A stretch of 8,797 nt of DNA, from IMG/VR virus record IMGVR_UViG_2531839180_000002, positions 1 to 8,797 of that record, one strand, 5' to 3'. The notes beneath the pieces are model-generated. The model saw nothing but the letters and a program-made list of their open reading frames with translations. It was not told where the DNA came from and made no database searches. Below, piece by piece: positions 1,360 through 8,478 of the stretch (within the stretch, counting starts at the first letter, position 1; every line of letters starts with the position of its first letter). The DNA comes from a virus. Taxonomy: Duplodnaviria; Heunggongvirae; Uroviricota; Caudoviricetes. Position numbers and translations under genes: made by a program.

Positions 1360-1454
1360 GTTGCAATTCTCCAACGTCTGTATTAATGTTTATACAAATG
1401 AGTTTGATTTGGGGCATCCGTCGCAAGAAATACCCCAAACAGGGAGATTATCAC
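1360..1454. promoter_or_regulatory. Divergent switch region between repressor and early operon (expected face-to-face promoters and operators by analogy with P2 Pe/Pc)
   Basis: 95-bp AT-rich interval between divergently oriented C and cox-like genes. Contains TATTAAT (1381-1387) and TTGATT (1404-1409) hexamer-like elements and AGGGAG (1441-1446) before the cox-like start. Exact promoter and operator positions cannot be fixed from sequence alone. Confidence 0.4.
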
Positions 1455-1781
1455 ATGAATGAAGAACTATTGAGGGCATTGTTTAAGATCCCAGACCCCA
1501 TCACCGTCGATGAGTTTTCCCGCCGCACAGGTAAGACCGAATCAGCCGTAAGAAAGTTGGTAGAGCGTCGACTCATCCCTCTAACTACTGAGCGCGAGGT
1601 TTTAGGCGAGGAAGGGAGTTCGCGCCGTCTTCTCATCCTTTGGAATGAGTGGCTCGAAATGGTCTATGACGCAACGAAACAGCTTCCTCCTGAGCGTAAA
1701 GATTGGCGCAATCACTGGCTTAAGAAAGCCAAGAAGCTGGCGGAAGATTTGGGATTAGGCTTTCTTAATTTTGCTGCATGA
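1455..1781 (+). CDS. cox: Cox/excisionase-like small DNA-binding protein, first gene of early operon, 108 aa
   Basis: ATG at 1455 preceded by AGGGAG (1441-1446). Position is equivalent to P2 cox / 186 apl. The segment ITVDEFSRRTGKTESAVRKLVERRLIP looks like a helix-turn-helix of excisionase type. Assignment rests on position and fold-like features, not strong sequence identity. Confidence 0.6.
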   Translation: MNEELLRALFKIPDPITVDEFSRRTGKTESAVRKLVERRLIPLTTEREVLGEEGSSRRLLILWNEWLEMVYDATKQLPPERKDWRNHWLKKAKKLAEDLGLGFLNFAA

Positions 1782-1799
1782 GAGGCAGGGAGTTTTGAT

Positions 1800-2141
1800 A
1801 TGAAACAGCAACGTAATTCACGCTTTCGTAATGGTGCTGAACGCCACGCTAACCGTTTCGCTACCAGTGCATCACGCAGCAACATCCGCTACAGCCTAAG
1901 TGATACACACGCAACGCCGGATGGCTACCCAGTAAAACAAATCGGCGAGCATGCCTGGCTGATTGAGAAAGCTGGAATCGTGGTCCACAAATGCCCACGC
2001 AATCCGTTTACTGGAAACCGCATTTTTGCTCTAAGCAGCGGCGACAATCAGTTTGGGCAGGATTTCACATTATACGAAGCGCTTCGCACGGTTGATCGTC
2101 TGCTGCGTGGGCAGAGTTTTATTAAACAGGCTGATTTATAA
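1800..2141 (+). CDS. Hypothetical early protein, 113 aa
   Basis: ATG at 1800 with GGGAG (1788-1792) 7 nt upstream, 18 nt after the cox-like stop. No motif I can assign. Confidence 0.6.
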   Translation: MKQQRNSRFRNGAERHANRFATSASRSNIRYSLSDTHATPDGYPVKQIGEHAWLIEKAGIVVHKCPRNPFTGNRIFALSSGDNQFGQDFTLYEALRTVDRLLRGQSFIKQADL

Positions 2142-2151
2142 CAGGTGCTTT

Positions 2152-2430
2152 ATGACTAAAGACCATACTCAAGGTGTATTTATCCGCTTTATTGATTCTC
2201 GCGGTGAACTGTTATTGCGTGCATCAGCTATTAATGGTGTGGCCCAGGCAAAAGACGCAACCACTCATATTTATTTGGACAGCGCCGCACAACTGATCGT
2301 GGAACTTCCGTACCAGACCGTACGAGAAATCATTAGTGAAGCTGAAAAGGCACGCCAGGCTAATGGCGATGAACCCTATATCGAAATTATTTGTATGGAT
2401 TCAGAAACTGAAATTCAGAAAGCAGATTAA
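2152..2430 (+). CDS. Hypothetical early protein, 92 aa
   Basis: ATG at 2152, 10 nt after the upstream stop. The track ORF extends upstream to 2053 but that part overlaps the preceding gene. Function unknown. Confidence 0.55.
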   Translation: MTKDHTQGVFIRFIDSRGELLLRASAINGVAQAKDATTHIYLDSAAQLIVELPYQTVREIISEAEKARQANGDEPYIEIICMDSETEIQKAD

Positions 2431-2441
2431 AGGGCGTTGCG

Positions 2442-2684
2442 ATGGGTAAAGAATATAAAACTCTCATTAACAAAGCACTTGAGCGTTTTTATTTTCGCTT
2501 AAGTGCATCAGGCGCTCATGCTGAACGTGCAGCCCGTGACTCATTGACCAGGGCAATCCGGAGTCTGTATGACGTGGCTTTTTACGCTGATGATCTGGAT
2601 GCACTTAACGAACTTTCCGAGCTGATCTGTGCCGCAGAATGCGGGGAACATATTGAACCGTATAAGCTGGGGAATATTGCATGA
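2442..2684 (+). CDS. Hypothetical early protein, 80 aa
   Basis: ATG at 2442 with AAGGG 7 nt upstream. Contains a C-x-x-E-C-G-E-H segment. Function unknown. Confidence 0.55.
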   Translation: MGKEYKTLINKALERFYFRLSASGAHAERAARDSLTRAIRSLYDVAFYADDLDALNELSELICAAECGEHIEPYKLGNIA

Positions 2685-2794
2685 GTATATTTATCTCATG
2701 GCTTGTTCTGATTATTTCGGTGGCCTGCGCCATTGGGATTATGCGAATTATTCATTCAGTAAAAAAGATTGAACGCTTTTTCACTGGCGAATAA
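2681..2794 (+). CDS. Putative small membrane peptide, 37 aa (MSIFISWLVLIISVACAIGIMRIIHSVKKIERFFTGE)
   Basis: Not in the supplied ORF track (too short). ATG 2681-2683 overlaps the upstream TGA (ATGA junction), the same coupling pattern as at 3081 and 3323. GGGGA lies 7 nt upstream. One predicted hydrophobic helix followed by a basic tail. Hand-translated, so lower confidence. Confidence 0.35.
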   Translation: MSIFISWLVLIISVACAIGIMRIIHSVKKIERFFTGE

Positions 2795-2880
2795 CAGAGC
2801 AAATAAAACCACAGGTTAAATAAGAAAATGTAAAAACAATCCGCATTCGCGGAGGTATTCGCACACGCCAAGGAGGCGTA

Positions 2881-3084
2881 ATGGCAATTAAGCATTTTCC
2901 TGTCGTTCGTTTTACCTCCAGAGGACGTGAATACGAAGTCGACGAACGCCTGATTACCACAATCGACAAACACCGTTCAGAAAAGGATGCACATCACATC
3001 TATCTCACTGACGGCACTTACTTCTGCGCCACGAATGTGGTGCGGGTGAACCTTATCCGACAGGTACAGGAGTCACGCAGATGA
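2881..3084 (+). CDS. Hypothetical early protein, 67 aa
   Basis: ATG at 2881 preceded by a strong AGGAGG (2871-2876). First gene after an 86-bp A-rich gap. Confidence 0.65.
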   Translation: MAIKHFPVVRFTSRGREYEVDERLITTIDKHRSEKDAHHIYLTDGTYFCATNVVRVNLIRQVQESRR

Positions 3085-3326
3085 CCATTCTGGACTATAT
3101 CGCCGCCAATCCGGGGTGTAGCGGTGGAGAAATCGCCGCAGCACTGAATACCCCAACCACAGCCATTAATGCGGAGTTACGCCGACTCTGGCGCAGCGGT
3201 TCAGTCATAAGAAAAGAACGCAAAACAGGCGGTCGCTTTTCTTACCAGATAAACCCGATGCCGTTCGGGTGCGGCAATCCACTTACCAACATGTTTAACC
3301 AGCTACTGAAGGAAGCCAGAGCATGA
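3081..3326 (+). CDS. Small winged-helix-type putative DNA-binding protein, 81 aa
   Basis: ATGA overlap with the upstream gene; AGGAG at 3068-3072. N-terminal segment DYIAANPGCSGGEIAAALNTPTTAINAELRRLWRSGSV has the pattern of a winged helix-turn-helix. Inference from motif appearance only. Confidence 0.6.
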   Translation: MTILDYIAANPGCSGGEIAAALNTPTTAINAELRRLWRSGSVIRKERKTGGRFSYQINPMPFGCGNPLTNMFNQLLKEARA

Positions 3327-3622
3327 GCGCCATCAACCACCAGGAATTACGCGAACTGGCGATTGACCTGCAACGAATGGCAACGCATCAAAAATTACTG
3401 GCGTTTCGCGCAATGCTCTCGCCGTCTGCCGTGCTGGCACTGCTGGATGAGCTGGAGCACGCCAGAACCATGTCTCCAGCCATTCGCCTGACGCTCCGTC
3501 ATGAAATCGAGGATTTCTGCGCGACGTTGGAGGCACCAGGCGAACCGGAAACGCCGGAAGCAATACAGAAAGAGCTGCTGCAACGCATTGACAAGGTTTT
3601 TGATTTTTTTCTGAACCACTAA
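3323..3622 (+). CDS. Hypothetical early protein, 99 aa, acidic, predicted helical
   Basis: ATGA overlap with the upstream gene. Last of three translationally coupled ORFs (2881-3622). Confidence 0.6.
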   Translation: MSAINHQELRELAIDLQRMATHQKLLAFRAMLSPSAVLALLDELEHARTMSPAIRLTLRHEIEDFCATLEAPGEPETPEAIQKELLQRIDKVFDFFLNH

Positions 3623-3691
3623 GAAACCAGAACATGCACACACAAAAAAACCGCTTGCCATGCCGCAATCAGTCAGGTTACATTTCCGCTG

Positions 3692-3739
3692 CACCTCACA
3701 AAACGGGTGCCGGGTTTCGCAGCCTGCTGACTACACAAG
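3692..3739. repeat. Direct repeat copy 1 (CACCTCACA ... GTTTCGCAGC ... CTACACAAG)
   Basis: Shares the exact 10-mer GTTTCGCAGC (3714-3723 vs 3890-3899), the exact 9-mer CTACACAAG (3731-3739 vs 3926-3934) and a CACC(T)CACA block with copy 2, in the same order but with indels. Confidence 0.5.
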
Positions 3740-3744
3740 CGCAC

Positions 3745-3765
3745 AACCGCGCCAGCGGTTTTTTT
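3745..3765 (+). terminator. Candidate intrinsic terminator (AACCGC-GCCA-GCGGTT stem-loop followed by a T7 run)
   Basis: CCGC (3747-3750) pairs with GCGG (3755-3758) around a GCCA loop, extendable by two A-T pairs, then TTTTTTT (3759-3765). The stem is short, so this may be a partial or leaky terminator. An alternative fold pairs CGCACAA (3740-3746) with TTGTGCG (3764-3770). Confidence 0.35.
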
Positions 3766-3805
3766 GTGCGTACTGTATTGCCACGTTTTTTTCGCGTCAG
3801 AATTA

Positions 3806-3883
3806 TGGCGGGGCGTACGGGGCCGACTTCGGTCGGGCCGGGTTCTTGTGTAGCCGGTACTGCGAACCTCGTACGTCTCGCCA
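3806..3883 (+). ncRNA. Candidate structured RNA element, about 78 nt: 14-bp closing helix enclosing a cUUCGg tetraloop hairpin
   Basis: 3806-3819 (TGGCGGGGCGTACG) pairs antiparallel with 3870-3883 (CGTACGTCTCGCCA) as 12 Watson-Crick plus 2 G-U pairs, valid only on the plus-strand RNA. Inside, CCGAC-TTCG-GTCGG (3823-3836) is a C(UUCG)G tetraloop hairpin, and CCGG (3838-3841) can pair with CCGG (3854-3857). No RBS-supported ORF is present. Does not fit tRNA geometry. Confidence 0.3.
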
Positions 3884-3934
3884 CCCACAGTTTCGCAGCT
3901 CTGGATGGTGAGTTTTCACAACTTACTACACAAG
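3883..3934. repeat. Direct repeat copy 2 (CACCCACA GTTTCGCAGC ... CTACACAAG)
   Basis: See copy 1. The two copies bracket the terminator-like hairpin and the structured element, about 145 bp between them. Confidence 0.5.
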
Positions 3935-3944
3935 GGGCCACACC

Positions 3945-4175
3945 ATGGCAAACCGCAAACCACACCGCGCTATCGCGGAGCGTCGTCACATCCAGACTGA
4001 AATCAACCGCAGACTTTCCCGCGCATTCCGCGTCGCTAAAATCATGCACATCAATATGCTGCATGAGCGTAGCTGCGAACTTTCAAACCTCTACTCATCC
4101 GCTGTTTTCAGTTATCTGGCGGATGATCTGCGCGAGCTTCAGCAGCTCATCCAGCAGCAAAACAAACTCCATTAA
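3945..4175 (+). CDS. Hypothetical basic protein, 76 aa
   Basis: ATG at 3945 with AAGGGG (3932-3937) 7 nt upstream. Arg/Lys-rich N-terminal half, helical C-terminus. Function unknown. Confidence 0.6.
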   Translation: MANRKPHRAIAERRHIQTEINRRLSRAFRVAKIMHINMLHERSCELSNLYSSAVFSYLADDLRELQQLIQQQNKLH

Positions 4176-4247
4176 TTCCTGTTCCGGGCCTTTCCTGCAC
4201 CTTGCGGCGGGAGGCCTTCGCACATCTGTAACAAGAGGATTGCCGCA

Positions 4248-4613
4248 ATGATTCTCGCCAACGACTTTCTTGAATACCTGCTCAACACAGAACGTGATCT
4301 TGCCGCTCGCGTGCGTGATCGTTATGACATGTACCTGAAATCCCTGCCTGTACCGCAGCTCGCTGACGGAAAAATTGTTATTGATGGTCGCTACGTGATC
4401 GACAGCCATGAGGGAAATTACAGGCTTTACCGCATTGAAGGTGGCACCCCGTCCGTTATTGGCATTTACCAGCGCCCATCCTCTGCAATCGTCGATGTGA
4501 TTGCCGACAGCATCCGCATCACACATCGCCATGCCGACACAGAAAACACCGTGCTGGAAATTCAGCGGCTGGCTACAGTCTGCCGCGACACCCTGAATGG
4601 CATGACGAAGTAA
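4248..4613 (+). CDS. Hypothetical protein, 121 aa
   Basis: ATG at 4248 with AAGAGG (4233-4238). Ends 6 nt before the start of the replication gene. Function unknown. Confidence 0.6.
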   Translation: MILANDFLEYLLNTERDLAARVRDRYDMYLKSLPVPQLADGKIVIDGRYVIDSHEGNYRLYRIEGGTPSVIGIYQRPSSAIVDVIADSIRITHRHADTENTVLEIQRLATVCRDTLNGMTK

Positions 4614-4619
4614 ATCACT

Positions 4620-7442
4620 ATGACGGCAGAGTACATCAGGGACTGGCAACAACCGCGCCACGCAGTGGGGCGTGAAGGAACGGGGATCCCCGCTCCTGAA
4701 TCCGCGCTTTCCTCCTGGCTGGATGCCTACCGGGTAGAGAACGAGCGCCGCCAGGAAATGGCTGATGCGGCGTTCTCCGCCACGCCGCTGGGCAACCTGA
4801 TTAATAAAAGCCTGGACGCACAGGAAAAACAGGACAAAACCATCACACTGGCAGGAGACGCCAGAAAACAGGCACGCGGCGCGGTGGATGAAGCCATGGC
4901 CTCGCTGCGCCTGCTGCCGTCCTATCTGCGTGATCCGCTTATTCGCCACCTCTCCTTCCTGCGCAAAAAACAGGAAGCCGATCGCCGGAAAGACAAAAAG
5001 AGCTGGCAGGCTGAACGCTACGCGCGCGGAACCCTGCGCAAAATATTCGAACGTCTGGACCGCACCGACCACCGCTGGCTGACACCGGGTTATCGCTCCC
5101 TTGCAGGACGCGAACGCCTGGATGATTTGCTTTACCTGCCGCAGCTCAACAAGCACCAGATACAGACGCTGGCCACCATGACGGCGGCGATGTTCAGCAG
5201 CACCTTCGAAAAACTCTGCGATGGCTTTGGCGCGACTGATGGCGAGCTGACCATGGATGTAACCCTGAAGGCGTATCAGATGCTGGCCCGCATGGCGTTA
5301 CACCTGCACGCCATGCCTCCGCATTATGACGCACTGACAACAGATAAAGACCGGAGGAACGAACCGGACACGGAGCTGCTGCCGGGCGCAGTCCTTCGCC
5401 TGACCTGTGCGGAATGGTGGAAACGCAAACTGTGGCTGTTACGTTGCGAGTGGAGAGAAGAACAACTCCGCGCCGCCTGTCTGGTTTCCAGAAAAACATC
5501 GCCCTATCTGAGCCAGGACGCATTAAGCGAGTTTCGCGCACAGCGCGAGAAAACACGCGATTTCCTGAAAAGTTTCATGCTGGAAAACGAAGACGGGTTC
5601 ACGATTGATCTCGAGACAGTGTATTACGCGGGAGTAAGTAACCCGGTTCACCGTAAGGCAGAAATGATGGCCACCATGAAGGGTCTGGAACTTCTGGCCG
5701 AAGCCCGTGGCGACAAAGCGGTGTTTCTGACCGTCACCTGCCCGTCAAAATACCACGCCACAACAGAGAACGGTCATCCGAATCTCAAATGGAACGGGGC
5801 CACCATGCGCGACTCCAGCGATTACCTGGTTAACACGTTTTTTGCGGCGGTCCGCAAAAAACTGAACCGCGACGGCCTGCGCTGGTATGGCATCCGCACG
5901 GTGGAGCCTCACCATGACGGCACCGTGCACTGGCACATGATGGTCTTTGCTCATCCGGAAGAAATCGACAGCATCGTGGCCATCACCCGCGATATTGCCA
6001 TTCAGGAAGACCGCCACGAGCTGGGCGATGACATAACTCCGCGTTTTAAGGCGGAGTACGTCGACGGCTCAAAAGGCACGCCAACCAGCTACATCGCCAC
6101 CTACATCGGAAAGAACCTGGACAGCCGCGCCGTGGATGGCATCGACCCGAAAACGGGCAAGCCACGCGTTGACCACGAAACCGGAAAATCAATGGCCGAG
6201 AGTGTGGAACGCGCCATCGGCTGGGCGCGCCTTCACCGGGTCCGCCAGTTCCAGTTCTTTGGCATCCCCTCCCGTCAGGTATGGCGTGAACTCCGCCGCC
6301 TTGCCAGCCAGATGGCACGCAACCCGGAAGGCCCACAACGGCTGAAGGATGATGCAATGGATGCGGTACTCGCTGCCGCTGATGCCGGGTGTTTTGCCAC
6401 CTACATTGAGAAACAGGGCGGCGTACTTGTTCCACGCAAAGACTACCTGATTCGCACCGCTTACGACCTCGCAGATGAGCTGAACGATTACGGCGAACAG
6501 AGCGTACAGATTTACGGGATCTGGTCACCACTCATCGGGGAATCCTCCCGTGTGTGCACGCACCCGGATAACTGGAAGCTGGTAAGACGTAAACCGGAAG
6601 CGGAAGACAGCGCCCGCGAAAATGGTTTTGACCTTCAGGGCGGCCCAGCCGCCCCTTGGACTCGTGGCAATAACTGTCCCCGTGTACAGGAAACGGACAA
6701 CAACGGGACAGAACAGCCGGAAGAACGGCCAGCACCGTGGTCGCAGCTCCCTGACGGCGTTGAAGTGAACGAATGGATGCGCTCACTGAAACGGCACGAA
6801 CGCCGGGCGCTGATGCGTTCGCTTCGTGACAAACAGGCAAAAAACAGCCGTGATGAAATGCAGAGCTGGACACAGAGCCGCAAACAGCAGCGGCCTTTGC
6901 CTGATAACCACGAATTACTCGCTAAAGAATGGCGGGAGTCTGCTGAATCTCTCGGCCTGCATATCGGTGAACAGCAGATGCAGCACCTGTTACGGGGCGG
7001 CAGTCTGTACGTTGACGGCAGCATCATTGCACCGCAGGGATTTGAAATTGTACGCAAGCCGGATACCCGACCGGACAGCCGGATCACGCAGCTCTGGCAG
7101 CGCCTGAGCCGTAACCACGGCGTAAGCAGCACGGAGATCCGCCATAACCCGGTCGCCAGCTATCTGGAACAGCTGGGGGCATCAGACCCCGAAGCCGCCG
7201 CACGCCTGGCATCCACACTTCAGCAAGACCAGAACACCATGAAAACACCCGTTACCGTGCTTTCTGACATGCTGCGCGCCATCCGCGACGCAGAGCACGC
7301 GCAGAGAATCAGTGAAACTGCTGAACGCGCCCGCCGCAAAGCAGACCTGCTGCGGGGTGGCCTGACCAGCGGAAACAAAAAACAGACAGAAACGGGATTC
7401 ACAAATCCCGTAAATGAGCAAAAAACGCGCCGCGATATATGA
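4620..7442 (+). CDS. A: Rolling-circle replication initiator, HUH endonuclease of the P2 gpA / phiX174 gpA family, 940 aa
   Basis: HUH metal-binding motif in EPHHDGTVHWHMMVF (HWH at 5928-5936). Paired catalytic tyrosines plus lysine in SYIATYIGKN (Tyr codons at 6090-6092 and 6102-6104), i.e. the Y-x3-Y-x2-K signature. Sits at the end of the early operon as P2 A does. Long N- and C-terminal regions flank the catalytic core. Confidence 0.9.
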   Translation: MTAEYIRDWQQPRHAVGREGTGIPAPESALSSWLDAYRVENERRQEMADAAFSATPLGNLINKSLDAQEKQDKTITLAGDARKQARGAVDEAMASLRLLPSYLRDPLIRHLSFLRKKQEADRRKDKKSWQAERYARGTLRKIFERLDRTDHRWLTPGYRSLAGRERLDDLLYLPQLNKHQIQTLATMTAAMFSSTFEKLCDGFGATDGELTMDVTLKAYQMLARMALHLHAMPPHYDALTTDKDRRNEPDTELLPGAVLRLTCAEWWKRKLWLLRCEWREEQLRAACLVSRKTSPYLSQDALSEFRAQREKTRDFLKSFMLENEDGFTIDLETVYYAGVSNPVHRKAEMMATMKGLELLAEARGDKAVFLTVTCPSKYHATTENGHPNLKWNGATMRDSSDYLVNTFFAAVRKKLNRDGLRWYGIRTVEPHHDGTVHWHMMVFAHPEEIDSIVAITRDIAIQEDRHELGDDITPRFKAEYVDGSKGTPTSYIATYIGKNLDSRAVDGIDPKTGKPRVDHETGKSMAESVERAIGWARLHRVRQFQFFGIPSRQVWRELRRLASQMARNPEGPQRLKDDAMDAVLAAADAGCFATYIEKQGGVLVPRKDYLIRTAYDLADELNDYGEQSVQIYGIWSPLIGESSRVCTHPDNWKLVRRKPEAEDSARENGFDLQGGPAAPWTRGNNCPRVQETDNNGTEQPEERPAPWSQLPDGVEVNEWMRSLKRHERRALMRSLRDKQAKNSRDEMQSWTQSRKQQRPLPDNHELLAKEWRESAESLGLHIGEQQMQHLLRGGSLYVDGSIIAPQGFEIVRKPDTRPDSRITQLWQRLSRNHGVSSTEIRHNPVASYLEQLGASDPEAAARLASTLQQDQNTMKTPVTVLSDMLRAIRDAEHAQRISETAERARRKADLLRGGLTSGNKKQTETGFTNPVNEQKTRRDI
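7376..7414. repeat. 39-bp repeat copy 1 containing the palindrome ACGGGATT-caca-AATCCCGT; lies inside the 3' end of gene A
   Basis: Matches copy 2 at 32 of 39 positions. Palindrome arms at 7392-7399 and 7404-7411. Confidence 0.55.
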
Positions 7443-7518: not shown

Positions 7519-8478
7519 ATGAAAATTTGTATCGACGACGGCTCCACCAACATCAAGCTGGCATGGACTGAGAACGGCGAACGCCGCAACGCCATCAGCC
7601 CGAACAGCTTCAAGTCGGAATGGTCTGCGCCGTTCGGCGGCACGCAGCCCGCGAACTACATGCTTGATGGCGTGCGCTATGGTTTTGATCCGGTCAGCGA
7701 TCGCTTTGTCCAGACGACCGACACGCAATACCAGTACAGCGATGTGAATGTCATTGCCATTCATCACGCGCTGGTCAAATCAGGCATCACGCCACAGGAG
7801 GTGGATGTGGTTGTCACCCTGCCACTGAGCGAGTATTTCGACACAAACGCACAGCCGGACATGGCCAACATCAACCGCAAAAAAGCGAACGTTATGCGCC
7901 CGGTGGAGTACCAGAACGGCGAAGCATTCACTATCCGTAACGTACGGGTTATGCCTGAATCCATTCCGGCTGGCTTTAAGGCACTGGCTGACATGAGTCC
8001 GTTTGAATCCCTGCTGATTGTGGATTTAGGCGGAACCACGCTGGATGTGGCAAAGGTTCAGGGACAACTGGCAGGCATCAGCCAGGTGTTTTGCGATCCA
8101 CACGTAGGCGTTTCCCTGATGGCCGATGCCGTACTGTCGGTGATGGCCACTAACGGTATGCGTACCAGTCACCATATCGCCAGTACCATTATCGAACATC
8201 GCCACGATGAAGCCTGGTTGCACCAGCACATCCACAATGACGCGCATTACGCCAGCCTGATGGCGGTTATTCGTGAAAAGGAAGAAACACTGAAACAACG
8301 CGTGATCCGCGCGCTGGCGGGTTTTTCGGGTTACGGGCGGGTGATGGTTGTCGGTGGAGGGGCAGAAATTGTGGCACCCGCTATCCGCGAAGCCTGCGGT
8401 GTTAATGCGACTTTCATCGCGGACGGGGTGCCACAGTTTGCTCTGGTTAATGGGCTGTACGCAATGGACAAGGAGTAA
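7519..8478 (+). CDS. parM: Actin-like segregation ATPase ParM/StbA, 319 aa
   Basis: ATG at 7519 with AAGGA 8 nt upstream. Actin-fold signatures are visible: phosphate-1 DDGSTNIKL at the N-terminus, phosphate-2 IVDLGGTTLDV, adenosine motif VVGGGAE. Colinear resemblance to plasmid R1 ParM along the whole length, as I recall that sequence. Confidence 0.9.
   Translation: MKICIDDGSTNIKLAWTENGERRNAISPNSFKSEWSAPFGGTQPANYMLDGVRYGFDPVSDRFVQTTDTQYQYSDVNVIAIHHALVKSGITPQEVDVVVTLPLSEYFDTNAQPDMANINRKKANVMRPVEYQNGEAFTIRNVRVMPESIPAGFKALADMSPFESLLIVDLGGTTLDVAKVQGQLAGISQVFCDPHVGVSLMADAVLSVMATNGMRTSHHIASTIIEHRHDEAWLHQHIHNDAHYASLMAVIREKEETLKQRVIRALAGFSGYGRVMVVGGGAEIVAPAIREACGVNATFIADGVPQFALVNGLYAMDKE

Follow-up and report, generated by a model that had tools for sequence, protein, structure and literature searches.

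Small genes in the early operon of a P88-like Escherichia coli prophage and their arrangement in two modules

Which of the small open reading frames (ORFs) between a cox-like gene and the replication gene of a P2-like phage are genuine genes, and what do their products contribute to the phage? This question is raised by positions 2152-3622 of an 8,797-nucleotide stretch of phage DNA, referred to here as the window.

Gene content and phage identity

An initial annotation made from the sequence had described a cluster of "six or seven" small ORFs at this position. The cluster exists, but the ORF listing and the sequence give six ORFs on the plus strand and not seven (Table 1); the other plus-strand ORFs of the interval are nested in alternative frames, and support was found for none of them. 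The ribosome binding sites, all described as good, are of unequal quality: that of the 67-aa ORF is strong (AAGGAGG) and those of the 81- and 99-aa ORFs are good (AGGAG and AAGGA), whereas the sites of the 92-, 80- and 37-aa ORFs are merely moderate. The ATGA start/stop overlaps reported at 2681, 3081 and 3323 are present, and they are kept in 88 of 88, 74 of 74 and 63 of 63 related loci, respectively. We regard the ORFs as real genes because their start, frame and length are retained across 89 related loci, with intact reading frames in nearly all of them, and because dN/dS is low. The mean pairwise values are 0.20 (92 aa), 0.22 (37 aa), 0.13 (67 aa), 0.20 (81 aa) and 0.21 (99 aa). For the 80-aa ORF, a value of 0.012 was obtained in loci that had been picked by this very protein and are hence biased, and 0.024 in independently chosen loci. 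That some of the ORFs are untranslated chance ORFs is hardly credible even for the 37-aa ORF, to which the idea chiefly applies on account of its very short length: it is intact with its start codon in all 88 loci, the substitutions within its hydrophobic helix are conservative only, and it is still 70% identical in a lineage in which a flanking gene has fallen to 42%.

The window comes from a P88-like E. coli prophage (Xuanwuvirus, Peduoviridae), of which it represents the early region. Over positions 2100-3700 the nucleotide identity is 95.5% to P884B11 and 93.3% to P88 (NC_026014), and the six ORFs match P88 gp05-gp10 in the same order and with the same overlaps. A P88-like early operon is defined here by the order cox, DUF4761, five to six small ORFs, derepression gene, A and ParM together with high identity; the window fits the annotation of P88 gp04-gp16 gene for gene. 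As had been proposed, the left flank is Cox-like (Pfam Phage_Cox, E 1.3e-5; BLASTP against P2 Cox, E 8e-8) and the right flank is the replication gene A (Phage_GPA, 434 bits). All six ORFs belong, as genuine genes, to the rightward early operon of this P88-like prophage; several are translationally coupled, and the description as co-translated early genes between cox and the replication gene holds. The genes have already been deposited and annotated, families such as DUF4754 and several PHROGs exist already, and the anatomy of the cluster holds nothing unexpected for a P2-like early operon; as a discovery it is ordinary.

An isrK/C4 antisense-RNA module directly follows the cluster. This module had escaped the initial annotation, as had the 93-95% identity to published phages and a pair of genes, the winged-helix (wHTH) gene and the 99-aa gene, that is shared with Stx phages.

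A matching region was found in 1443 of 5426 complete E. coli genomes (about 27%), and the carriers include ST131, UTI89, O157:H7 and O104:H4 strains. For an early gene set of this frequency, the function of the six proteins is a gap in the biology of common prophages.

Table 1. Features of the early gene cluster and its left neighbour (positions in the window)
Feature	Position	Strand	Remark
DUF4761 protein, 113 aa	1800..2141	+	Pfam PF15958, 231.9 bits; outside 2152-3622
92-aa acidic protein (phrog_3800), P88 gp05 equivalent	2152..2430	+	PHROG E 7e-48
DUF4754 protein, 80 aa, P88 gp06 equivalent	2442..2684	+	Pfam PF15946
37-aa single-pass membrane peptide, P88 gp07 equivalent	2681..2794	+	start overlaps DUF4754 stop (ATGA)
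Conserved A-rich spacer	2795..2867	+	5-bp hairpin TCCGC-ATTC-GCGGA at 2840-2853
67-aa basic all-beta protein (phrog_3459), P88 gp08 equivalent	2881..3084	+	
81-aa minimal winged-helix protein, P88 gp09 equivalent	3081..3326	+	ATGA-coupled to 67-aa ORF
99-aa acidic protein (phrog_4144), P88 gp10 equivalent	3323..3622	+	ATGA-coupled to wHTH gene

Two modules split by a hairpin and an empty cargo hotspot

The comparison of related loci showed that the cluster is not one functional unit but consists of two evolutionary modules, split by a conserved hairpin and an empty cargo hotspot. The left module (DUF4761, 92-aa protein, DUF4754 and transmembrane peptide) is specific to the P88-like lineage, its four proteins being found in P88-like phages only. 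The DUF4761 gene is the first of this conserved block and accompanies it in nearly all related loci. The right module starts with the older 67-aa barrel, which in a distant P2-like lineage, too, is found together with a gene A of this type. In some 90 related prophages that differ in immunity regions and cargo, the series of genes running from DUF4761 through the 67-aa gene is nearly invariant. Variation is seen in the immunity genes, the wHTH gene (missing from some P88-like prophages), the 99-aa gene, the C4 RNA and the derepression gene, and most relatives carry immunity genes (C and cox) of another type than the window.

A cargo hotspot at about 2868 is bordered on its left by the spacer between the modules, which is retained with or without cargo to its right. 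Compensatory changes occur at two of the five pairs of the hairpin stem and wobble pairs at two. Read on the minus strand, the hairpin precedes a run of T and was classed as terminator-like. A second hotspot lies after the stop codon of the 99-aa gene at 3622. Both are empty in the window, with gaps of 86 bp and 57 bp compared with 352-842 bp and 621-1154 bp elsewhere, where they hold a Dam methylase, an exonuclease, a ParE-like protein, an SPFH protein and unknown ORFs of 136-156 aa. In Escherichia phage P88, gp10 is followed by additional cargo (a small membrane protein and an SPFH/Band 7 protein), and in many other relatives an ORF of 136-156 aa separates the peptide gene from the 67-aa gene; the window lacks both.

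P2 and 186 share with the window a leftward integrase and repressor and a rightward series of a Cox-type gene, small overlapping ORFs and A. The early operon of P2 reads cox-orf78-B-orf80-orf81-orf82-orf83-A and that of 186 reads apl-cII-fil-dhr-tR1-...-A. All three even have an interruption midway along this series, in the form of a terminator after B in P2, of tR1 in 186 and of the hairpin spacer in the window. Homology, in contrast, is confined to Cox and A. In searches with phmmer --max and BLASTP, the six proteins gave nothing significant against P2 orf78 and orf80-83 or against 186 cII, Fil, Dhr and gp31-34, and only Cox matched. The assignment to well-characterised P2 early proteins (B, orf80-83), against which the initial annotation had set its own reading, found no match in these homology searches.

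The same applies to the P2 helicase loader B, of which the initial annotation had recognised no homologue. None of the ORFs belongs to B by phmmer or BLASTP, and the best pair, DUF4754 against B, was discarded as a B remnant (BLASTP E 0.004 in a set of 19 sequences; hhalign probability 1.8%). Given that B is missing from the window, one or more of the proteins (DUF4754, the 92-aa protein, the 67-aa barrel) might stand in for the loader or assist protein A (940 aa) at the origin. Such a role would suit the homologues of the 92-, 67- and 121-aa proteins that adjoin a GPA-type A gene and a ParM gene in distant P2-like loci, the faint similarity of the barrel to the DNA-binding Sac7d, and the extreme constraint on DUF4754, which would fit the binding of an invariant host protein such as DnaB. 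We nevertheless consider it quite unlikely. Sequence and profile comparisons show no similarity to B, in sister lineages the 92-aa slot is filled by another ORF or absent, and DUF4754 and the peptide are missing from a distant locus (L093) whose A gene is of the same type. Moreover, a P2-like phage need not carry B, because the annotated early operon of 186 has no gene of this type. Phage 186 uses the host helicase loader rather than a B-type gene of its own.

In searches of Pfam, PHROGs, NCBIfam, PADLOC and PDB, profile searches of the kind that the initial annotation had suggested included, no function could be assigned to the six proteins. In particular, the PDB sequence search gave nothing significant for five proteins used singly and for three profiles, NCBIfam gave nothing useful, no match to PADLOC-DB was better than E 0.01 (all were partial and to large unrelated models), and neither Pfam nor PHROGs contains an anti-defence annotation for any of the six. 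A literature search found no paper naming DUF4754, DUF4761 or the RefSeq accessions of these proteins. Of the structure predictions that had likewise been suggested, the one for the 67-aa protein was confident, but the AlphaFold2 model of the 92-aa protein reached a pLDDT of 49.5 and was not usable.

We favour, with a probability of roughly 0.55, the reading that these early-operon genes in two modules encode early regulators or host-takeover factors and are fixed genes of the lineage, not anti-defence cargo. A function as early regulator or in host takeover is the most likely one by position, not by homology: at the equivalent place the annotation of 186 lists cII, fil (a cell-division inhibitor), dhr (which inhibits DNA replication of the host) and then a terminator, and it is operon position only that likens the present genes to the host shut-off genes Fil and Dhr. 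By gene order and the P2/186 paradigm, the early promoter would drive transcription of the genes once lytic growth or infection begins, and the proteins of each coupled set would be made in fixed ratios. A simple promoter scan did not single out the early promoter, and in a consensus scan internal promoter-like sites did not exceed the chance expectation.

The initial annotation had thought instead of accessory genes for superinfection exclusion or anti-defence, that is, of small proteins that would block the immune systems of the host at an early stage of infection or keep out other phages. The early-operon position, the small size, the narrow taxonomic range and the lack of a known family are in line with this, and so are the Dam methylase, exonuclease and ParE-like genes that occupy the adjoining hotspots elsewhere; a membrane peptide is, in general, a frequent form of exclusion protein. 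For P2-like phages, defence hotspots have been described between gpA and gpQ and beside the integrase (PMC13586616). In the prophages compared here, the block from DUF4761 to the 67-aa gene is near-invariant and under purifying selection (dN/dS 0.01-0.22) despite differing immunity types and cargo, and the variable cargo is found in the two hotspots, which are empty in the window. Known counter-defence genes, by comparison, usually differ among close relatives. The fast-swapping defence and anti-defence cargo would then be the occupants of the two neighbouring hotspots in other prophages rather than the six genes. Matches in PADLOC or Pfam are lacking, and known anti-defence genes were found in only 28 of 8165 P2-like prophages surveyed (PMC13586616). 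Exclusion needs expression in the lysogen, but the genes lie in a repressed early operon in which no convincing internal promoter was found. In sum the suggestion appears rather unlikely to us, although an anti-defence role against a conserved host system may be compatible with purifying selection and constant presence.

The left module and its membrane peptide

Regarding the 92-aa protein, the N-terminal part of about 60 aa is strongly conserved and the C-terminal tail is variable. It has 94 close homologues, nearly all in Escherichia. Its slot is exchangeable: an unrelated 84-aa ORF takes its place in L096-L098, and the gene is missing from L094. A homologue with 28% identity adjoins cox in the distant P2-like locus L093. 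By eye, the 92-aa and the 67-aa proteins share a pattern (R-F-x-S-R-G ... H-I-Y-L), but as paralogues they had to be rejected (nothing in BLASTP; hhalign probability 0.35%).

The 80-aa protein is a clear member of DUF4754, with 181.7 bits against a gathering threshold of 27 and residues 1-80 covering the 80-position model. Within the P88 group its gene is the most constrained one, with 4 non-synonymous against 50 synonymous differences in the independently chosen loci. Among 185,579 species representative genomes, DUF4754 was found only in E. albertii and on one probably contaminated contig. In the sister lineages L094 and L096 its identity is only 42-43%.

The designation of the 37-aa ORF as a membrane peptide is well founded, with a single strongly hydrophobic helix (mean Kyte-Doolittle value of 2.68 for residues 3-21) and a basic tail after it; RefSeq lists it as a 37-aa hypothetical protein. 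Its identity is 70-86% in the lineages in which DUF4754 has dropped to 42-43%, which makes it the best conserved early gene between sister lineages. A short resemblance to the C-terminus of 186 Fil (IMRIIHSVKK and IIRIVHFVIK, about 10 residues) is not significant (E 0.38).

The size of the peptide, its layout of a helix and then a charged tail, which in general terms resembles toxins of the Ldr/Fst type, and its better conservation compared with the neighbouring genes might also be expected of a membrane-damaging type I toxin or a holin-like protein that serves abortive infection or host killing and is no partner of DUF4754. A type I toxin-antitoxin system is defined by a transcription unit of its own with a cis-encoded antisense RNA. 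The 37-aa ORF has neither its own promoter nor an antisense RNA, no protein family matches it, and Rfam finds no RNA at 2681-2880. In all 88 loci the ORF starts within the stop of DUF4754, which ties its translation to that of DUF4754. We therefore judge a toxin to be very unlikely.

Within the preferred reading of early regulators or host-takeover factors, DUF4754 and the peptide might act at the inner membrane, in the manner of 186 Fil/Dhr or lambda Kil, which halt host division or replication. As a more specific and doubtful proposal, the two could form a previously unrecognised two-protein module, in which a soluble helical protein is coupled to an inner-membrane peptide. If this were true, the peptide would engage a host membrane target that does not vary (in the division, transport or energy machinery, for instance) and reprogram the cell early in lytic growth. 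An invariant target would be suggested because the peptide remains 70-86% identical where its partner and neighbours have drifted to about 40-50%. The constrained pair of DUF4754 and the peptide is one of the two most attractive targets in the cluster; the other is the pair of the wHTH and Ea22-like genes common to Stx phages.

The right module and its relatives in Stx phages

For the 67-aa protein, a small SH3-like barrel of five strands was confidently predicted. In this predicted fold as well as in size and positive charge it is similar to the SH3-like barrels of the Sac7d/Sso7d type, and it has a V-x-F-x3-G-x-E-x-E-V-D motif in common with engineered Sac7d, a similarity that is faint. Within the preferred reading, the barrel would bind nucleic acid or a partner protein; as a separate possibility, it might serve the wHTH regulator or the replication initiator as a DNA-bending accessory of the Sac7d kind. 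A natural fusion of the 67-aa and wHTH proteins, at which phrog_19053 hints, was not supported: an exhaustive HMMER search with the 67-aa profile returned 17 representative clusters and no fusion, and the phrog_19053 profile probably joins neighbouring genes.

The winged-helix signature that had been noticed in the 81-aa protein was confirmed by scores above the Pfam thresholds for MarR_2 (28.2 versus 27 bits) and HTH_24 (25.9 versus 21.9 bits), and the protein belongs to phrog_1687 (E 1.9e-31). The database label "MarR family" overstates this relation. In the strict sense, MarR proteins comprise about 140-160 aa, with N- and C-terminal helices around the wHTH that form the dimer interface; the present protein of 81 aa has the wHTH core only (residues 2-52) and scores 13.7 against 24.6 bits for classical MarR. 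The wHTH protein is predicted to bind DNA. A repeat scan of the intergenic regions revealed no operator-like repeats for it, and the only notable results of the scan were those of the isrK/C4 module.

In the 99-aa protein, the N-terminal 45-55 aa or so are similar to the N-terminus of Ead/Ea22 and the remainder is unique. The score for the Ead/Ea22 family (PF13935) stays at 21.7 against a threshold of 27 bits, with residues 22-54 aligned to profile positions 56-86 of 139. In tblastn, residues 1-45 are 51-59% identical to Ea22-like genes of Stx and lambdoid phages, and the likeness ends at about residue 45, the C-terminal domain of the Ea22 type being absent; PDB searches with the C-terminal half gave no match. 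Ea22 has been reported to be an early, tetrameric and pro-lysogenic protein in which a coiled coil joins a short N-terminal to a C-terminal domain (PMC10834534, PMC7093339), the latter being a mixed alpha-beta dimer (PMC10834534). Lambda Ea22 is comparable in its early expression and in its short N-terminal domain with coiled coil (PMC10834534), but the 99-aa protein is half as long, has a different C-terminus and is encoded in a P2-like rather than a lambdoid phage. By analogy with lambda Ea22, it may oligomerise and either bias the choice between lysis and lysogeny or engage a host protein.

The wHTH gene and the part encoding the 99-aa N-terminus also occur together in Stx phages, between cI and xis/int. 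Adjacent Stx genes in the lambdoid exo-xis region of Ea22/Ead are 50-59% identical to the wHTH gene and to the first 45 aa or so of the 99-aa protein, the wHTH protein itself being 50% identical to the product of a "MarR family" gene in the early-left operon. The pair of wHTH and Ea22-N-like genes is exchangeable, and lambdoid Stx phages carry it in their early-left operon.

Gene content and conservation of the small-ORF cluster

The window represents the left end of a P2-related prophage. In its early region the initial annotation had noted a cluster of small ORFs of unknown function at 2152-3622, joined by ATGA overlaps at 2681, 3081 and 3323. These overlaps are present as described, and the Shine-Dalgarno sequences within the cluster range from strong (AAGGAGG at the 67-aa ORF) to moderate.

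Annotated features of the window, in map order
Feature	Position	Strand	Family, score or remark
Integrase	1-1023	minus	
C-type repressor	1057-1374	minus	
Cox-like gene	1455-1781		
DUF4761 gene	1800-2141		after Cox-like gene
92-aa ORF	2152-2430	plus	phrog_3800
80-aa ORF	2442-2684	plus	DUF4754, full length, 181.7 bits
37-aa ORF	2681-2794	plus	no family match
67-aa ORF	2881-3084	plus	phrog_3459; five-strand barrel predicted, pLDDT 88.9
81-aa ORF	3081-3326	plus	wHTH: MarR_2 28.2 bits, HTH_24 25.9 bits, wHTH core alone
99-aa ORF	3323-3622	plus	Ead_Ea22 21.7 bits (threshold 27), residues 22-54 only
isrK-like RNA	3691-3765		64 bits (threshold 50)
C4 antisense RNA	3801-3888		83 bits (threshold 45)
76-aa 'derepression' ORF	3945-4175		Pfam PF25738, 29.2 bits
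121-aa ORF	4248-4613		immediately upstream of A
Replication gene A			940 aa; Phage_GPA, 434 bits
ParM/StbA-like gene	7519-8478		actin-type segregation ATPase; after replication gene A

Between 2100 and 3700 the nucleotide sequence shares 95.5% identity with Xuanwuvirus P884B11, 95.2% with phage PhiR44_2 and 93.3% with phage P88, where the same genes are annotated in the same order as gp05-gp10. Of 5426 complete E. coli genomes, 1443 contain a match to 1400-4700, among them JJ1886 (ST131), UTI89 and O157:H7 and O104:H4 strains. In these genomes RefSeq gives the products the names 'hypothetical protein', 'DUF4754 family protein' or 'MarR family transcriptional regulator'; the 37-aa ORF, too, is annotated. 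The cluster is therefore already known at the sequence level; it is an ordinary, deposited and very common part of P88-like prophages. Three of the families, searched in a collection of 5.8 billion proteins, are all confined to Escherichia and a few close relatives, and an exhaustive HMMER search with the 67-aa profile retrieved only 17 representative clusters. Among 185,579 species representatives DUF4754 turned up twice, in E. albertii and in a contig of 'Vagococcus sp. WN89Y' (L011, NZ_JBQPOM010000071.1). The gene on this contig is 98% identical to that of E. coli and most likely represents E. coli contamination of the Vagococcus assembly.

In 89 related loci, taken from phage records, viral contigs and E. 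coli genomes, the six ORFs almost always begin at the same start codon and run in frame to the same length. Mean pairwise dN/dS in gene order is 0.20, 0.012, 0.22, 0.13, 0.20 and 0.21, the second value being biased by the choice of viral loci with DUF4754; in loci chosen by DNA similarity this gene shows 4 non-synonymous versus 50 synonymous differences. No disruption of the 37-aa ORF is seen in any of 88 loci; its variation is conservative (V/A/I in the helix, H/N, R/Q), and in seven loci the product has an altered tail and is 45 aa long. The three overlaps are kept in 88/88, 74/74 and 63/63 loci, respectively. ORF integrity, dN/dS and overlaps thus confirm the cluster far beyond chance: the six genes are real, are partly translation-coupled and make up a conserved block that is specific to the lineage and separate from the exchangeable cargo beside it.

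The 37-aa peptide is the shortest gene yet the best conserved (window 2681-2794 versus 3368-3493 and 5007-5120 in the related loci L094 and L096): identity across sister lineages is 70-86%, compared with only 42-43% for DUF4754 and 44-50% for the 67-aa protein. Several deposited variants of the 92-aa protein (P0111, P0113, P0114, P0141, P0142 and P0147) are frameshifted at differing points into an alternative frame, the +1 ORF 2336-2449 ending in ...KQIKGRCDGQRI. The long frameshifted form is rare (2 of 86 loci examined), and the variants are probably mutations or assembly errors, not products of programmed frameshifting.

Constant genes, mosaic neighbours and insertion hotspots

In the presence/absence comparison of the 89 loci, DUF4761, the 92-aa ORF, DUF4754, the peptide and the 67-aa ORF form a nearly constant set under every immunity type, and the wHTH gene, the 99-aa gene, the RNA region and the derepression gene are found in some loci and missing from others. 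The immunity region 1057-1781 (C repressor and Cox) is mosaic, the C/cox type of the window being found in only about 8 of 89 loci; the small-ORF block on its right does not change with the C/cox type. More distant loci differ in composition. The P2-like element L093 encodes ParM, a GPA protein of 789 aa and homologues of the 92-aa, 67-aa and 121-aa proteins, and lacks DUF4761, DUF4754 and the peptide; L094 keeps these three without the 92-aa gene, which is replaced by an unrelated 84-aa ORF in L096-L098. When the six proteins were compared by tblastn with 50,697 phage records, the first four were matched in P88-like phages only. Stx1/Stx2 phages also carry, together and at 50% identity, counterparts of the wHTH protein and of the 99-aa protein over its first ~45 residues; there the genes are located in the early-left operon between cI and xis/int.

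The early operon contains two insertion hotspots, at ~2868 and ~3623-3680, both empty in the window. Between the peptide and the 67-aa ORF, 46 loci have a gap of 85-87 bp and 43 a gap of 352-842 bp; after the 99-aa ORF, 40 loci have one of 56-58 bp and 22 one of 621-1154 bp. As described from L001, L006-L008, L094 and L096-L098, the first hotspot elsewhere holds a 136-138-aa ORF (JJ1886, O157:H7), ORFs of 142-156 and 109-112 aa, or a set of Rv2179c-like exonuclease, ParE-like protein and Dam-type methylase; the second holds a small membrane protein and an SPFH/Band 7 protein in P88. The A-rich spacer 2795-2867 behind the peptide is retained in all P88-like loci with or without cargo. It includes a hairpin at 2840-2853 (TCCGC-ATTC-GCGGA, 5-bp stem) with compensatory changes at two pairs, wobble at two pairs and a T run behind it on the minus strand; the hairpin may be a processing site, a terminator or a protein-binding palindrome.

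These patterns bear on the suggestion of the initial annotation that the cluster might serve anti-defence or superinfection exclusion, which found no support and which we regard as unlikely. The main argument against it, although not decisive, is the constancy and purifying selection of the block across prophages whose real cargo, adjoining it, differs. Furthermore, a survey of 8165 P2-like prophages recorded known anti-defence genes in only 28; in the portion considered here it names defence hotspots at gpA-gpQ and integrase-att, the two early-operon hotspots of the window not being among those named there (PMC13586616).

Relation to P2 and 186 and possible functions

Cluster proteins were checked against Pfam, PHROGs, NCBIfam, PADLOC and PDB and with AlphaFold2 and Foldseek. 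Both PHROGs in the table are of unknown function, NCBIfam and PADLOC added nothing, and solved structures gave no match by sequence or profile. The model of the 92-aa protein was unusable (pLDDT 49.5). For the 67-aa barrel, Foldseek against viral models returned only small uncharacterised barrels (E 0.01 or weaker), and a profile search of PDB sequences placed engineered Sac7d on top at E 0.05, with the motif V-x-F-x3-G-x-E-x-E-V-D in common; these two weak signals agree and suggest an SH3-like small barrel, but no more. The winged-helix signature noted earlier in the 81-aa protein was recovered by two profiles, and by family membership this is a presumptive DNA-binding protein.

Comparison of all proteins of the P2 and 186 early operons with those of the window yielded Cox as the sole match (E 8e-8), and none to P2 orf78, B and orf80-83 or to 186 cII, Fil, Dhr and gp31-34. 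DUF4754 and B formed the one borderline pair, with an hhalign probability of 1.8%. The tentative statement that no P2 B helicase-loader homologue is present therefore holds, and the view of the cluster as early genes of unknown function was right. A role of the proteins as replication accessories appears quite unlikely. The layout is nevertheless that of P2 and 186 (Cox-type gene, small-gene set, break, second set, A), with the break at the place of the terminator that follows B in P2 and of tR1 in 186. In 186, cII, fil and dhr stand where the DUF4754-peptide pair is found here, an analogy of position and not a homology. The 121-aa ORF shows faint similarity to DUF5405 (P2 orf83; E 0.095) and P2 orf81 (E 0.02). 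Since the distant loci L093 and L094 carry clear homologues of this ORF upstream of their A genes, it probably holds the place that orf83 takes in P2 and gp31 in 186.

Overall, with a probability of roughly 0.55, the cluster would be transcribed from the early promoter when lytic development begins, its products serving regulation and host takeover; beyond this reading and those of anti-defence or exclusion and of replication accessories, little weight falls to any other. The constant coupling of DUF4754 to the peptide, together with the peptide's unusual conservation, suggests that the two may act jointly at the inner membrane. Of Ea22-like proteins, the 99-aa protein shares the N-terminal module only. 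For lambda Ea22, published work describes a tetrameric early protein that is pro-lysogenic (PMC10834534, PMC7093339), and a similar oligomerising, decision-biasing role of the 99-aa protein is plausible.

The isrK/C4 module and the ParM-like gene

Directly downstream of the cluster lie the isrK-like RNA and the C4 RNA, each preceded by promoter-like hexamers. A hairpin and a T run come after the former, which is bracketed by a 21-nt inverted repeat (3638-3658 / 3751-3771). The 9-mer CTACACAAG is present at 3731-3739, inside isrK, and at 3926-3934, where it overlaps the Shine-Dalgarno sequence of the 'derepression' ORF; its exact complement is located in the C4 RNA (3845-3853), giving three occurrences versus 0.04 expected by chance. 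The P1 c4/ant system has the same arrangement. It is also found for IsrK of Gifsy-1 (PMC4825925). The module (3638-3944) looks like a second immunity circuit of P1 c4/ant or P4 type controlling an antirepressor.

The ParM-like gene after A is unusual for a P2-like phage. In L093, ParM likewise occurs, together with a Plasmid_stab_B gene. The ParM-like gene may indicate that the phage passes through a plasmid-like stage or partitions its replicating genomes.
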